36,329 nucleotides of DNA from IMG/VR virus record IMGVR_UViG_3300017766_004476, positions 76,413-112,741 of that record. One strand, written 5' to 3'. Of this stretch, positions 17,402 through 35,731 are shown in pieces. Position numbers and translations under genes: made by a program. The first letter of the stretch is position 1. Each line of letters begins with the position of its first letter. Origin of the DNA: a virus. Lineage: Duplodnaviria; Heunggongvirae; Uroviricota; Caudoviricetes. The notes below the pieces were generated by a model. That model was given only the letters and a program-made list of their open reading frames with translations, searched no databases and had not been told where the DNA came from.

Positions 17402-18232
17402 TTAAGGTGTATAGTTAGGAATCATTAAGAGTAATTGATCTTTGTTTTCAGTAAACTTCCATGCAGGCCATGATATCCATCTCGTTCTTGCAGGTGGTGC
17501 GATGTTTGTAGGTGTTATTTCGTCTAAATCAAAAAATTTCTCTTTGATAATCAACCGACCATTCTTCAAACTTGGATCATACTCAGCCCAATTGATTCCC
17601 TTCTGAAAAATCAACTTTTGCAATTCAGTGGAATTCTTAGATTGTAATTCTTTGTGACTATAGAGACTCTGAGCGACCATAGAAACAGAATTACGGGCGC
17701 AATCTTGATTTCTCCAAATAAAGTAGTTCATCACTTCAGTACGGTCAGGAATGGTGAATACACGGGAATCGAACGCAGCCGGACGAAACTCTTCTACTCC
17801 CACCACTTGCCCGTCTGAAAATGTATGTAAATCCGATTCAGATAATGCCTTGGAATACTCTTTAACCCAAGTCTTGAACCTGTATTGGTTAAACTCAGCA
17901 GTCATCAAACTTGCTGACACAGAACAGATTTTCTGAATATTACCATCAAACCATGCATCTGTATTCTCCTTTTCAAAATCCGTTAAAAGGATAGAAATTT
18001 CATCGCTTTGGACATATGCGAATACTGCTCCTTGAATTTGAGGAAGGATTGCTTTTACAGCATCGTCTAAATCATCAATCAATTCTTTATCAAATGGTTT
18101 TTTCAACCCTCTTGTGTAAGTGTGAAAAGCTTTACCGTCTAAGCGTATGATGGTATAGGTTCTACGGGGTAGTGAATAGCGAGTGCGGCTCTCGTATTGA
18201 GCCTTCATTCTATCTCCAAGTGTATCTTTCAT
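17402..18232 (-). CDS. thg1: tRNA(His) guanylyltransferase Thg1-like protein (3'-5' polymerase)
   Basis: LGDRMK.YE, IRLDGKAFHTYT, YVQSDEISILL, WFDGNIQKI.S, FDSRVF, YFIWRNQD..RNS. Confidence 0.92.
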   Translation of the reverse strand: MKDTLGDRMKAQYESRTRYSLPRRTYTIIRLDGKAFHTYTRGLKKPFDKELIDDLDDAVKAILPQIQGAVFAYVQSDEISILLTDFEKENTDAWFDGNIQKICSVSASLMTAEFNQYRFKTWVKEYSKALSESDLHTFSDGQVVGVEEFRPAAFDSRVFTIPDRTEVMNYFIWRNQDCARNSVSMVAQSLYSHKELQSKNSTELQKLIFQKGINWAEYDPSLKNGRLIIKEKFFDLDEITPTNIAPPARTRWISWPAWKFTENKDQLLLMIPNYTP

Positions 18233-18514: not shown

Positions 18515-19150
18515 TTAAATTGGGTAAATTCGTTTAAGTAACCTCATGAGGTAGTCATGAGTCATAAGCTGATACATTCCACTATCATCAAACTTAGTCA
18601 AGTCTGTATTAGAATAGCAAATTGGTTGATATTCTGAATCTTCTTTACCTTCGTAGACTACCCATGCTGCAGTTTCATGAAGATTTACAAATACGGTATG
18701 GAGCTCCGATGCATCTAGATGTATCCTTGAAGGGTTATATGCATAAACTCTGTCTACTGCAAATGCATATAAAGGCGCATCTCCGAGATACTCGAATTTG
18801 CATTCATTTTCTTTAATCTTTGACTTATAGAGATACTTTTTATATTGTCTACCTGTAAGATAGTGTTCTTCTTTGCTGGCTGTAAATTTTCTATTGTGAA
18901 TGCAGCCATGTATTACATCAATATCTAGTTCACAGTGATGAGGATGAATAGCAACTGAAAGTTCATCACTATCTCTATGATTTTTCCACAGCTCGTGATT
19001 TTCATGAGCAATAAACATTCTGATACGTGCACCCGGAGTGTCATCAAACAGAATAGAATCTACTCCTCGAGCATGACAATTTATCAGAGACTTCTGAAGC
19101 ATCACGTCAAGGTTAGTCTTGAGAAAATGTTTAACTAGGTTTAAGTGCAT
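18515..19150 (-). CDS. hypothetical protein, possibly a cupin-like metal-binding fold
   Basis: CH, HPHH and LHTV His clusters within beta-rich sequence. Confidence 0.5.
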   Translation of the reverse strand: MHLNLVKHFLKTNLDVMLQKSLINCHARGVDSILFDDTPGARIRMFIAHENHELWKNHRDSDELSVAIHPHHCELDIDVIHGCIHNRKFTASKEEHYLTGRQYKKYLYKSKIKENECKFEYLGDAPLYAFAVDRVYAYNPSRIHLDASELHTVFVNLHETAAWVVYEGKEDSEYQPICYSNTDLTKFDDSGMYQLMTHDYLMRLLKRIYPI

Positions 19151-19565
19151 TGAGCTTCTCTTTCACATAGGTGCTGATATATTTGACATCAATCCGAGTA
19201 TCATACTTCACCTTGATAAAATTAATAACTTTACCCATATCACGTGGTGATGCTGCGCCTGCTTCAACAATTGCCTGATCAACGATTTCAGGATACTTGT
19301 TGAGTTCAATCTTTTCAGGGAGAAGCCTTTCAAGAACTTCAATCATGAGATGTTCATTGTCGTGTGCGATTTTATTCTCAATCATCTCCTTGAGAACTTT
19401 AATTTCCTTTGCAGTTATTGCTTGACATTCATCAAAGGTAAGTTCACGAGCTTCACGCCCTTCAACTGCTTGAATGGCAGAGAGGACATATTGATAGGCT
19501 TTAACTCGAGTGGGATTGCGATCCTTACGAGCATTCTGAATATGAGTAAGAAGTTGTGTCTTCAT
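19131..19565 (-). CDS. GatB/YqeY domain protein
   Basis: A.K.R....  pattern at the N-terminus, VLERLLP, EAGAASPRDMGKVI...K...D...S..VKEKL. Confidence 0.85.
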   Translation of the reverse strand: MKTQLLTHIQNARKDRNPTRVKAYQYVLSAIQAVEGREARELTFDECQAITAKEIKVLKEMIENKIAHDNEHLMIEVLERLLPEKIELNKYPEIVDQAIVEAGAASPRDMGKVINFIKVKYDTRIDVKYISTYVKEKLNALKPS

Positions 19566-21568: not shown

Positions 21569-21640
21569 TGGCACGACGTGAGAGTGCTGCCCTCTCTAAG
21601 ACAAGTTTTGGAGACTCGTCAGTCTGCTGAGACCCGTCGT
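21569..21640 (-). tRNA. tRNA-Trp(CCA), short D arm, atypical T loop
   Basis: ACGACG/CGTCGT acceptor, CGAGT-CTCCAAA-ACTTG anticodon arm, GAGAG-GGCAGCA-CTCTC T arm, GCCA end. Confidence 0.75.
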
Positions 21641-21644
21641 ATTA

Positions 21645-22500
21645 TCGGCGTGAGAATACCGCTTGTTAGTTAGGTCTTTTATTCGATTATTACCTCCTTG
21701 CGAGAGGCTTTCCGAACTTTTCCACGCTTCACAGCGTATCCTAACAGTGCTGCCTTTTTTAGAGTGAGGCTTTAACACTCTTCATCATAACACCTTCAAC
21801 CGTCATTCTACCGCCAACCTTGCGAGCTGTTCGAGGGAATTACCCCCTACGTGCGAACTCAGATTAATCATCTCAGACCTTGCGAGTCTTCGACAACCTC
21901 AGTTACCCTTGCGAGCCTAAGGCTTAAGCACCTTCATGCTATGATAGGAACCGGCTTTGCGTTTTTGCTATTAGATTAATACAATTTAATTTTTTTGCAC
22001 TATACAGTGATGTGCGATTCCCTGCGTTTCATAACCTTTTGGATTACAAAATGCGCAACACCACATAACTTTCCCTTACGGGTACTCATCGATACTTTGA
22101 AATTCAGGGTATTGTAAAGCAGCACCCCTCTTTTCGCGTAATGATCGTAAGCTCTTACTTGTTATCGTTCGAACCCACTATCTGTGCTTTAGTCTTTAAC
22201 TTGCGATGTTTGGCATAAACTAGTGTTCTCGGCGCTACCGTTAGAAGTCTTATGGCACCAGCGTTGCCCATGCCTTAAAACCGTTTCTAATTCCATCTTC
22301 GAGTATAGCTCAACCTTTTGAGTTAAACTTACAAGACTTACACTTTGTATAAATGTCCTATTCGTTAAATAGGCGCGGAACTGTATAGAGTTCACGCTTT
22401 AAATACCCTTACGGATATCTATCTTATCCCTTGCTAAGCTACCACCTACCAAGAAACCCTCCTGCGAGGTAAGGATGTCATACCACCCTTAATATTTGAC
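21645..22500 (-). ncRNA. large structured ncRNA, GOLLD-like (boundaries approximate)
   Basis: About 850 nt without a credible ORF, higher GC than the genes; four exact CTCGCAAGG GNRA-hairpin cores (21696, 21818, 21878, 21907) plus CCGTAAGG hairpins near 22075 and 22408; runs straight into tRNA-Trp. Confidence 0.6.
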
Positions 22501-22600
22501 TTTCAATGATCGTTTTGTATCAATTATTTATGTTTAATCATATTTAATTGATGTGAATAATATAAATGATACCGAAAAGAATGCAACGGTCATTTATACT

Positions 22601-24895: not shown

Positions 24896-25738
24896 TTAAC
24901 TATAGATTTCCCATTGTTGAGTGAACCCTGCAAAGCCATCACTCTTAGGATTAAAGAGTGTATAATTATCTCCATAATGATACAAGTACATTTTTTGTTT
25001 TAAATCATTAGGTAAAGTCTTAAGCTGATCATATGTTGCATGAACTGATCCCGGATTGAATAATTGAGTATCGTGGAACACTGCATCGAGATTCTTATTA
25101 CCCACATCATCAAAGAGACTTAAATCAAACCGTGTATCTCCGCTTACCATAATTCTACTATCAATTAACACTCCATTGCACCAGAATGATTTTTCCCAGC
25201 TCTCAGTAAATCCCGGAATGTGTGCAGTCCGGAAGATAGTCATCTGCATATCCATATCGAGAATATCAAATGTAAACATCTCACGCGGAGCTTTTTTAAC
25301 CCACTCAGGACGAATCACCTCAAAGTAATCAGTAAATTTGAGAAGACCTTCTTCAGTATATGCCATACTGCCTGCAAGAGAACTATCCCACAGCTGTCTC
25401 TGATATGTTTCAGTTATGAGCATCTTCGGCTTTGTTTTATGAACATAGCGTCCCATAAAGCCGAGTTCCTCAACTCCACCCATATGATCTGCATGGCTGT
25501 GGGTAATATGATAGTAGTCAAACTCATGCAATCCAATTCCCTTACTATGAAGAGCCATAGGAATTGTCGTACCTATATCTACTAGAAGAGATTTGCCATT
25601 CTTGCAGATGAAGAATGAGGATTGATTATTCTTCTTTGCAAAGGCTGAGCCTACACCAATAAAGGTGATATTCGGTTTCTTCTCATTCACTGAGAGTTGT
25701 TTTGCAAATGCAAGAGGGTTGCAGGTTGAGATATTCAT
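24896..25738 (-). CDS. metallo-beta-lactamase-fold phosphodiesterase, Apyc1 (anti-Pycsar)-like
   Basis: GVGSAFAKK, THSHADHMGGVEE, LWDSSL.G, DYF, GDTRFD, VFHDTQ, VHA, LYHYGDN. Confidence 0.75.
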   Translation of the reverse strand: MNISTCNPLAFAKQLSVNEKKPNITFIGVGSAFAKKNNQSSFFICKNGKSLLVDIGTTIPMALHSKGIGLHEFDYYHITHSHADHMGGVEELGFMGRYVHKTKPKMLITETYQRQLWDSSLAGSMAYTEEGLLKFTDYFEVIRPEWVKKAPREMFTFDILDMDMQMTIFRTAHIPGFTESWEKSFWCNGVLIDSRIMVSGDTRFDLSLFDDVGNKNLDAVFHDTQLFNPGSVHATYDQLKTLPNDLKQKMYLYHYGDNYTLFNPKSDGFAGFTQQWEIYS

Positions 25739-28065: not shown

Positions 28066-28142
28066 GGTGGGACTAGTGGGATTTGCACCCACACTGCCGA
28101 GCTTCTCAGACTCGTGACTCCTTCTAGTTGGTCTATAGTCCC
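28066..28142 (-). tRNA. tRNA-Leu(GAG), short variable loop
   Basis: GGGACTA/TAGTCCC, CGAGT-CTGAGAA-GCTCG, GTGGG-TGCAAAT-CCCAC. Confidence 0.8.
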
Positions 28143-28146
28143 ATTT

Positions 28147-28371
28147 AACACAGCCGTAGCCAGAATTTTGTTTTATCCTATCATTTGACTAAGCACCAAC
28201 CCGGACCTACCATAACGAGAAGCACTACTCATCGGTCCTGTTTGGCTTGCATCTACTATTTGTGGTATTAACGAGTAAATTTCATTCGCCACTACTTTAT
28301 ACTCTCCCATCAGCTGCTTTGATGTTCTGAACTTCCTCAGATATTTCTATCCGCGATAGGTCGCTTATGTT
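28147..28371 (-). ncRNA. rnpB: compact RNase P RNA
   Basis: CR-I GAGGAAGTTCAGAA and CR-V ACAAAATTCTGGCTA form a complete 8-bp P4 with the bulged U; P2 CCTATC/GATAGG; P3 CGGATA-GAAA-TATCTG; P5 CATC/GATG; P6 AAGCA/TGCTT; GCAAGCCAAA and GGTCCGGGTTGGTGCTT match the P15 region. Confidence 0.85.
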
Positions 28372-29134
28372 AAATTTTCTTTAAGCCGCATTCATGACAA
28401 ATATATCCATCCCATGCAGGAAAGCCACATTGTTCACAACTTTTAAGTACTTCCTGAGATTCGTTAATGTCCTTTTCTCTAGTTGAGACTCCTGGTGACT
28501 TTCGAGGTTCTCTAATATCTACCCCAGCCGCACGTAAATGCAAATTGACTTCTGAATCATGCAGAGTTGGGTCATTTGTTTCTGCATCATTACACATCTT
28601 ATCTAAACCAGCTTGTTGAAGCCTGCGAGTCTGCTCTTCACCTAAACTCACTAATGCAGCTCTGAGTTCTTCTTTAGGAACTTCTGCTACTTCACATCCC
28701 GGATCAGGATATCCTGGATGCTTTTGAACGTTTGTATAATCTAAATTGTATCCTGTTCTAGATTCTTTAATACGAGGAAAGATACAATTAATAGTGTCTT
28801 TCCATTTTTTCTTACATTCTTCTACATTTATATTACCGTAAATGTGTTGTGCTTCAGTTATATATTCCTCACCTATCTCAAGTAGGGAGTTATATAGATC
28901 TTCTCGAGGTATTGGTATGAGATGGTGGCTACTCACCATTACTTTAGCATCGCATGATTCATCTGCTGGTTGCTCTACCCTTTTCATGAAAAGATCATGA
29001 GCAATCTGACTATAACAGCTATTGCAAATATGATACTTCCAAACACTTCCGGTAATCTTATCAGGTGGAGAAAATAACAAACCACCTGGTTCGTTTATCT
29101 CTTTATGACACACATCACAATTAACTTTTAACAT
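28370..29134 (-). CDS. hypothetical protein with N- and C-terminal zinc-ribbon motifs
   Basis: CDVC...CNSC and CEQC...CHEC; start moved to MLKVNC because the longer frame begins in a tRNA. Confidence 0.65.
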   Translation of the reverse strand: MLKVNCDVCHKEINEPGGLLFSPPDKITGSVWKYHICNSCYSQIAHDLFMKRVEQPADESCDAKVMVSSHHLIPIPREDLYNSLLEIGEEYITEAQHIYGNINVEECKKKWKDTINCIFPRIKESRTGYNLDYTNVQKHPGYPDPGCEVAEVPKEELRAALVSLGEEQTRRLQQAGLDKMCNDAETNDPTLHDSEVNLHLRAAGVDIREPRKSPGVSTREKDINESQEVLKSCEQCGFPAWDGYICHECGLKKI

Positions 29135-29177
29135 AATCGTAATATAAATGTTCTCTCTCAGATTGCAATTTATTAAT

Positions 29178-29255
29178 TGGTACTTCCAGTGAGATTTGCA
29201 CTCACACATCCATGTTTTTGAGACAAGTGACTCCTGCTAATTGGTCTATGGAAGC
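29178..29255 (-). tRNA. tRNA-Leu(CAA), short variable loop
   Basis: GCTTCCA/TGGAAGT, loop CTCAAAA, ACCA end. Confidence 0.8.
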
Positions 29256-29431: not shown

Positions 29432-29506
29432 TGGCTCCTCCGGCTGGTAACGCTCCAGCAACTCTTGTTTCAGAGACAAGCGTAGTGACTTCTATACTAC
29501 AGAGGA
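29432..29506 (-). tRNA. tRNA-Gln(CTG)
   Basis: TCCTCTG/CGGAGGA, CTTGT-CTCTGAA-ACAAG, GCCA end. Confidence 0.85.
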
Positions 29507-31347: not shown

Positions 31348-31421
31348 GGTAGTCCTTGTCGGTAACGCTCCGACATCCTTAGATTGAGAATCTAATGTAT
31401 TTACTTCTATACGAAAGGACC
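31348..31421 (-). tRNA. tRNA-Glu(CTC)
   Basis: GGTCCTT/AAGGACT, TTAGA-TTCTCAA-TCTAA. Confidence 0.85.
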
Positions 31422-31930: not shown

Positions 31931-31933
31931 AAT

Positions 31934-32019
31934 TGGTACCAGCGAGGAGACTTGCACTCCTAAGGACAGACACTCTTAAGGCGTTCGCTTCTTCTAATTT
32001 CGCTCTCGTCCACGCTGGC
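31934..32019 (-). tRNA. tRNA-Leu(TAA)-like with a non-canonical expanded D region
   Basis: GCCAGCG/CGCTGGT, loop CTTAAGA, T arm AGGAG-TGCAAGT-CTCCT, ACCA. Confidence 0.65.
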
Positions 32020-32023
32020 AATA

Positions 32024-32108
32024 GGTACCTGAGAAGGGACTTGCACCCCTAAGGACAAATGGTTCTAAGCCAATCGCTTCTTCTAATTTCGCTCTCGTCC
32101 ACTCAGGC
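32024..32108 (-). tRNA. tRNA-Leu(TAG)-like with the same expanded D region
   Basis: GCCTGAG/CTCAGGT, loop CTTAGAA, T arm AGGGG-TGCAAGT-CCCTT. Confidence 0.65.
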
Positions 32109-32201
32109 ATTTTCTTTTAAAGAATAAGTTAGGATTTCACACCATCTTATTTCAAATAGGATAATTACTCCTTTAAGAAAATCAATGTATGTTCCGCTAA
32201 T

Positions 32202-32373: not shown

Positions 32374-32447
32374 TGGTAGGAAATGAAGGTAATGCTCCCT
32401 CGTCCACAGAGTGTAAATCTGGTGTTCTGCTTTTGAACTAATTTCCC
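32374..32447 (-). tRNA. tRNA-Val(TAC)
   Basis: GGGAAAT/ATTTCCT, loop TTTACAC, ACCA. Confidence 0.85.
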
Positions 32448-35656: not shown

Positions 35657-35731
35657 GGTCGGAATAGAGAGACTTGCACTCTCAGCCTCCTGTCTCCAAA
35701 ACAGGCCGTCTACTATTGACATTATATTCCG
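35657..35731 (-). tRNA. tRNA-Pro(TGG)
   Basis: CGGAATA/TATTCCG, CCTGT-TTTGGAG-ACAGG. Confidence 0.8.

Follow-up and report, generated by a model that had tools for sequence, protein, structure and literature searches.

A GOLLD RNA with an unusual 5' half on the minus strand of a large phage

The gene-free stretch that we describe here is very probably a single non-coding gene encoding a GOLLD RNA of ~850 nt on the minus strand of a large phage. A known RNA family gains a new member, and this member has an unusual 5' half. The match to the GOLLD family in Rfam (RF02032) runs from 22064 to 21647 on the minus strand, covers the whole model (positions 1 to 416; the model spans about 416 nt), and scores 184.7 bits against a gathering cut-off of 150. 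The first-pass annotation of this DNA had proposed that the RNA either belonged to GOLLD or represented a new class of large ornate RNA; a full-length GOLLD 3' domain above the curated Rfam cut-off upholds the first option and refutes the second. GOLLD RNAs, often longer than 800 nt, combine a universally conserved 3' region with a less conserved 5' region, and they occur in phages near tRNA islands, where their function is unknown (PMC12286853). The family is defined by its 3' domain, and its 5' end is known to vary (PMC12286853).

The locus and its conserved 3' domain

The source is a virus record of 112,741 nt, from which we analyzed a 36-kb stretch (36,329 nt; hereafter the window). The region 22500-21645 lies on a gene-dense minus strand between an AAA ATPase gene (23725-22601, assigned by Pfam AAA) and a 199-amino-acid open reading frame (ORF; 21548-20949). 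The region had been described as a long gap in the gene-dense strand, and gene calling on an independent contig left the space between the flanking ORFs empty. Folding of the 856-nt region on the minus strand gave a z score of −5.0, and none of 20 shuffled sequences folded equally well. The four identical cores reported previously are also real: exact copies of CTCGCAAGG lie on the minus strand at 21915-21907, 21886-21878, 21826-21818, and 21704-21696, with no further copy in the window, compared with a mean of 0.11 copies in shuffled sequences (0 of 100 shuffles reached four).

The GOLLD match is the only copy in the 112,741-nt record, and between 20900 and 22700 nothing else scored meaningfully in an Rfam scan. 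ROOL and the other large-RNA families gave no score up to E = 10, and we rejected a ROOL identity on that basis. Measured from 22490 to 21647, the RNA is ~845 nt long, within the 700- to 850-nt GOLLD range. Its context is typical of a phage GOLLD: the window contains 16 Rfam tRNA matches, and a tRNA-Trp follows the RNA after 6 nt. The tmRNA (20874-20449), which the first-pass annotation had placed next to the RNA, is separated from it by the 199-amino-acid ORF and has a promoter-like site of its own (20948). This tmRNA (minus strand) has an unusually long tag frame of about 35 codons and a 72-nt insert relative to the Rfam model.

The main elements of the 3' half are as follows:

21647-22064, minus strand: conserved GOLLD 3' domain (Rfam RF02032, 184.7 bits)
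21963-22003, minus strand: short A/U-rich variable linker with no embedded tRNA
21648-21662, minus strand: terminal hairpin P27 (Rfam alignment)

In the closest homologues the linker contains a tRNA; here it is short and tRNA free, so any "tRNA storage" could not be covalent in this copy. Homologues were assembled from pattern and genome searches into a set of ~50 nonredundant GOLLD-like RNAs, a subset of which was confirmed with Rfam, and covariation among them is present in both halves of the RNA. BLAST against phage and plasmid records returned a 54-nt match to Streptococcus phages or nothing, the neighboring AAA ATPase used as bait recovered only distant proteins and no related viral loci, and the matches to several of the homologue-search patterns were mostly due to chance. 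In one viral contig of 58,992 nt (loci L025 and L066), the GOLLD 3'-end pattern occurs at two separate places, which suggests two different GOLLD copies in one phage.

A conserved subtype of the 5' domain

The 5' half was divided as follows:

22427-22490, minus strand: three leading hairpins, the probable 5' start of the folded RNA (folding)
22357-22419, minus strand: P3-like (GUAA loop), P4-like, and P5-like stems (collinear with L164, L217, and L218)
22174-22358, minus strand: conserved core of the 5' domain (R1 match, covariation)
22065-22173, minus strand: remainder of the 5' domain, with a GUAA hairpin (22082-22073) as its last element

A profile built from 33 5' domains of the env-38 type did not match the 5' half. 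R1, a covariance model of 13 homologues from which this sequence was left out, matched the window over its full length at 22358-22174 (minus strand; 42.3 bits; E = 1.3e-12), and its next best match in the window scored 11 bits. It found no match at the GOLLD positions of env-38-type loci, and it gave weak but correctly placed matches to the 5' domain of Streptococcus phage Javan565 (14.7 bits; E = 3e-4) and to locus L003 (11.6 bits).

Three GC-rich GOLLDs (L164, L217, and L218) are alignable with this RNA across both halves. The 5' half keeps 72 of the 108 pairs in a consensus structure derived from those three alone, compared with a mean of 41 for shuffled sequences (maximum, 57) and 45 for env-38-type domains. 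The count of two-sided changes in the 5' half was high at 28, but one shuffle reached that level (shuffle maximum, 29). In a joint alignment of the 5' core, 26 of 42 predicted pairs have two-sided changes, and the P3-, P4-, and P5-like stems show paired changes on both sides relative to the same three GOLLDs. The same core is present in the GOLLDs of 14 of the 134 genomes of a Verrucomicrobiales family; the last 5' hairpin matches that of the GOLLD of Caulobacter phage Ccr34, and homologues have one or two hairpins at the position of the three leading hairpins.

Because R1, pair retention, and the homologue matches all point the same way, we conclude from comparative sequence analysis that the 5' domain is a real, conserved subtype. 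It also occurs in GOLLDs of Verrucomicrobiales tRNA arrays, may be distantly and weakly related to the Streptococcus type, and is unlike the env-38 cap. A GGGCAAC loop in the core (about 22270-22260) resembles the bridge-B2 loop of env-38. The env-38 5' kissing loop B4 (L10-L12) has no evident counterpart: where env-38 has a kissing-loop stem, the last 5' hairpin of this RNA (22082-22073) has a GUAA loop.

Repeated loops and predicted cage contacts

The label "GNRA rich" attached to this region is right only in part. The GTAA-loop hairpins that supported it do exist, as GUAA tetraloops at 22412-22409 and 22079-22076, and there is a GUGA loop at 21732-21729. The repeated CTCGCAAGG loops, however, are in the Rfam consensus five-base CGCAA loops with a U-G closing pair, and a GNRA reading of them requires a bulged base. 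We mapped these and other loops onto the contacts, or bridges, of the solved env-38 cage with our own combination of the Rfam alignment, the env-38 bridge table, and the machine-read env-38 sequence:

22037-22041, minus strand: L14 loop CAAAA, putative A-minor donor in bridge B6 (Rfam alignment, bridge table)
21959-21960, minus strand: J13/15 dinucleotide GC, predicted partner of L20 in bridge B7
21907-21915, minus strand: CTCGCAAGG copy 1, loop of a variable hairpin in the P18 region
21878-21886, minus strand: CTCGCAAGG copy 2, loop L20 (CGCAA), predicted kissing partner in bridge B7
21835-21846, minus strand: P21a hairpin with palindromic AAUU loop L21a, predicted self-kissing bridge B8
21818-21826, minus strand: CTCGCAAGG copy 3, loop L21b with self-complementary GC, predicted bridge B9
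21725-21736, minus strand: hairpin with GUGA tetraloop, candidate donor in bridge B10 (our mapping)

Two of the four CTCGCAAGG copies thus map to known cage contacts (L20 and L21b). Homologues have GC, CC, UC, or GA as the L20 dinucleotide, and in 45 of 48 of them the linker carries the complementary dinucleotide at the corresponding position; here, B7 would pair GC with GC. L21a reads UCGA, AGCU, GGCC, or GAUC in homologues and AAUU here, and a self-complementary dinucleotide was present in all 51 of the L21a loops scored, a count to be read knowing that the sequences are related and that short loops often contain one by chance. A GC/CG switch at L21a has been described (PMC12286853). With B7 and B8 checked by covariation and B6, B9, and B10 by the Rfam alignment against the bridge table, all five 3'-domain bridges (B6 to B10) are compatible with the sequence, which makes cage assembly likely. 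The env-38 GOLLD cage is a 14-mer (PDB 9MEE; PMC12286853), and the S. agalactiae GOLLD is a 12-mer (PDB 9L0R), while its 3' domain alone forms mainly a 10-mer (PMC12990946). The solved env-38 cage is hollow and, apart from a disordered loop, empty (PMC12286853).

A natural variant of the P26 arm

The fourth CTCGCAAGG copy lies in the only part of the RNA for which we found a natural variant:

21674-21717, minus strand: P26 with an inserted hairpin (CTCGCAAGG copy 4, 21704-21696); polymorphic 44-nt patch

The inserted L26 hairpin is also present in the Verrucomicrobiales and L164 RNAs. Over 14,289 nt, a second contig (L216, run SRR10520205) departs from the window at 19 positions only, every one a substitution within 21717-21674. 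P26 and the inserted hairpin are exchanged on both arms, with four and five pairs, respectively, retained; one G-C becomes G-U, and the GAA and UAAU loop bases on the flanks stay as they were. When these sites were changed at random, both helices survived in 1.4% of trials, and the variant still scores 179 bits as a GOLLD in Rfam. A search of viral contigs found no donor of the variant patch. The patch is either recombined or the product of an assembly that switched between two phages present together and identical in the flanks; under either origin, a second, structure-preserving allele exists.

Promoters, RNA ends, and an atypical tRNA-Trp

Three features bound the RNA:

22559-22586, minus strand: candidate sigma-70-type phage promoter (TTGCAT, 16 nt, TATATT)
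22525-22532, minus strand: candidate T4-type late promoter, CATAAATA
21569-21640, minus strand: atypical tRNA-Trp with anticodon CCA at 21611-21609 and an encoded 3' CCA (covarying cloverleaf)

A generic sigma-70 scan alone did not rise above chance. The TTGCAT-16-TATATT arrangement also precedes the tmRNA (20948) and recurs at 29168 and elsewhere in the genome. This phage promoter class, TTG...TATATTAC, frequently has ACAC behind it and occurs at 22586, 20948, 29168, 31074, and three sites outside the window. ATAAATA, the core of the late-promoter-like site, lies 8 to 50 nt ahead of an ORF start in 13 cases, where 1.8 would be expected, a ratio that AT-rich gaps inflate. The 5' end of the RNA should fall between about 22552 and 22457. 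No terminator was found between GOLLD and the tRNA-Trp, which starts 6 nt after the end of the GOLLD Rfam match.

The downstream tRNA-Trp had been noted previously and is real but atypical, and both ARAGORN and Rfam miss it. It has A1-U72 and G73, which we take to be identity elements of bacterial tRNA-Trp, along with a CCA anticodon and 3' CCA. It lacks the canonical D-loop GG and T-loop TTC; its 4-nt D loop, 6-bp anticodon stem, and GGCAGCA T loop explain why standard finders overlook it. The unusual D and T loops are conserved in homologues, and across 10 of these, 96% of the cells of the cloverleaf are paired and 17 of 21 pairs have two-sided changes. This tRNA-Trp type is widespread in phage tRNA arrays (L118, L138, L147, L164, L187, L195, L201, L207, and L465), with a D loop of 4 to 6 nt, an extended anticodon stem, a short variable loop, and a GGCAGYA T loop, a layout that recalls that of tRNA-Pyl. 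Among the titles returned by a literature search, none describes it. The pattern matched in only 5 of 201 Verrucomicrobiota genomes, so we rejected the idea that this is the normal tRNA-Trp of that phylum, and the RNA's relatives give only a hint of a Verrucomicrobia host.

The adjacency of GOLLD and this tRNA-Trp is not conserved. L164 is the sole other locus with both, about 2.7 kb apart rather than adjacent; 15 other loci with this tRNA-Trp type had no GOLLD above the cut-off in the DNA retrieved; and what follows other GOLLDs is a terminator or a different tRNA.

Several other features of the neighborhood, all on the minus strand where a strand is given, merit record. A small RNase P-like RNA (28145-28373; RNaseP_arch, 44.3 bits, E = 1e-11, below the cut-off) lies directly before a tRNA-Leu. 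Several other tRNAs, at 29432-29506, 31350-31421, 32377-32447, 28066-28142, 29178-29255, and 35659-35731, have nonstandard T loops (AGCGTTA, AGCATTA, and TGCAAAT); ARAGORN and Rfam differ on which of them they detect. Two adjacent 90-nt copies, about 81% identical, lie inside the tRNA region at 31931-32109. Close to the RNA cluster are genes for an Apyc1-like anti-Pycsar protein (24896-25738), Thg1 (tRNA-His guanylyltransferase; 17402-18232), and a YqeY-like protein (19131-19565).

Proposed mechanism, role, and alternatives

Reading these features together, we consider it likely that the RNA is transcribed with the tRNA-Trp, trimmed, and assembled into a hollow cage similar to those already solved. 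One or both of the phage promoters at 22586-22525 would transcribe a precursor that runs on into the tRNA-Trp. RNase P cleaves precursors at the first base of the tRNA, and a cut at that base here (21640) would both free the tRNA-Trp and define the GOLLD 3' end. The RNA would then fold into two domains, and copies of it would assemble into a hollow dihedral cage of about 10 to 14 chains, as in the solved GOLLDs, held together by L14 (CAAAA), the L20-linker GC pair, the self-kissing AAUU and CGCAA loops, and the GNRA loops. The different 5' cap, we propose, probably sets a chain number other than the 14 of env-38. As to what such a cage would do, our guess from context, which is tentative, is an abundant, nuclease-resistant particle that serves during infection as a shelter or decoy for phage translation RNAs. 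GOLLD would in that role join the toolkit that surrounds it: the tRNA array, tmRNA, RNase P-like RNA, Thg1, and Apyc1.

A somewhat unlikely alternative keeps the same RNA and fold and makes the cage secondary to a job in binding host ribosomes or another ribonucleoprotein, thereby tuning translation. Pull-down binding of GOLLD to ribosomes is cited in PMC12286853, and the locus sits among translation-related RNAs, yet no feature of the sequence points to ribosome contact, and the conserved loops map instead to RNA-RNA cage bridges.

It is doubtful that two further propositions hold jointly: that the RNA represents an uncharacterized GOLLD subtype whose cap, without the env-38 kissing loop, gives a different cage size, and that P26 is a swapped module under diversifying pressure, the whole arm having been exchanged by recombination between otherwise identical phages. 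If both were true, the P26 arm would mark a surface that meets a host factor.

The organization of the locus invites the idea that GOLLD serves the odd tRNA-Trp behind it in cis, as a folded leader or a platform for its processing: the spacer is only 6 nt, no terminator was found, the upstream promoters would be shared, the tRNA-Trp lacks the usual elbow bases, and the phage encodes an RNase P-like RNA. The lack of conserved adjacency, with other GOLLDs running into terminators or different tRNAs and this tRNA-Trp type occurring without an adjacent GOLLD, renders that idea improbable. Large ribozymes are comparable to GOLLD in size and complexity, and the RNA might on those grounds be a ribozyme awaiting its substrate. 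This is more improbable still, given that Rfam finds no ribozyme family match and that the solved structure is a hollow cage, empty bar a disordered loop. A possible hammerhead ribozyme near 22090 was rejected on inspection, the required core bases being absent.

A large ornate RNA class unrelated to GOLLD could be argued from the failure of the env-38-type profile in the 5' half and the almost empty BLAST results in phage and plasmid records, but the full-length 3' domain above the cut-off, in a family whose 5' end is known to vary, makes it extremely improbable. Equally remote is the notion that the structure is incidental to protein genes in the short ORFs at 21778-21596 (60 amino acids) and 22395-22189 (68 amino acids): both frames are open with GTG starts, but neither has a Pfam match at the cut-off, was called as a gene, or gains tblastn support in homologous loci, and 9 of the 60 residues of the shorter differ in L216 while base pairs are kept, which argues against coding. 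An alternative genetic code was likewise rejected, as all three stops are used.

Although this copy does not reveal what GOLLD does, it supplies material for further work: a third kind of 5' cap with which to ask how the cap determines cage size, a natural allele pair that differs in one arm only, an empty-linker version to set against tRNA-carrying relatives, and a new palindrome, AAUU, that supports the self-kissing bridge. Direct genetic tests are limited, since the phage is uncultured. Useful as they are, the 5' subtype, the swapped P26 patch, and the atypical tRNA leave the class of the RNA unchanged.

Comparison with known systems

ROOL, like this RNA, is a large, ornate, cage-forming phage RNA found near tRNAs; it has no Rfam match here, and its sequence and structure are unrelated. 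The env-38 GOLLD (PDB 9MEE) has the full 3' domain in common with this RNA and is of similar length (833 nt versus about 850 nt). Both are phage encoded beside tRNAs and have two domains with a variable linker, and this RNA also has sequences compatible with B6 to B10, P3- to P5-like stems, and a B2-like loop. In contrast to env-38, its 5' domain is dissimilar by both the profile hidden Markov model and R1, it has no evident B4 kissing loop, its L26 contains an extra hairpin, and the palindrome in its L21a is AAUU instead of GC or CG. The Streptococcus type, tested on phage Javan565, has the same 3' domain (256 bits), whereas R1 scores its 5' domain at 14.7 bits in Javan565 against 42 bits here; the S. 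agalactiae GOLLD is shorter (700 nt), and likeness to this type was scored on Javan565.

Fourteen of the 134 genomes of the Verrucomicrobiales family (L447 to L460) carry a GOLLD, at 83 to 153 bits; only one passes the Rfam cut-off, and standard annotation therefore misses most of them. The GOLLDs of this family and of provirus L164 have the same 5' core and inserted L26 hairpin as this RNA, but they are GC rich and carry a tRNA in the linker where examined, whereas this copy is AT rich and its linker is empty.
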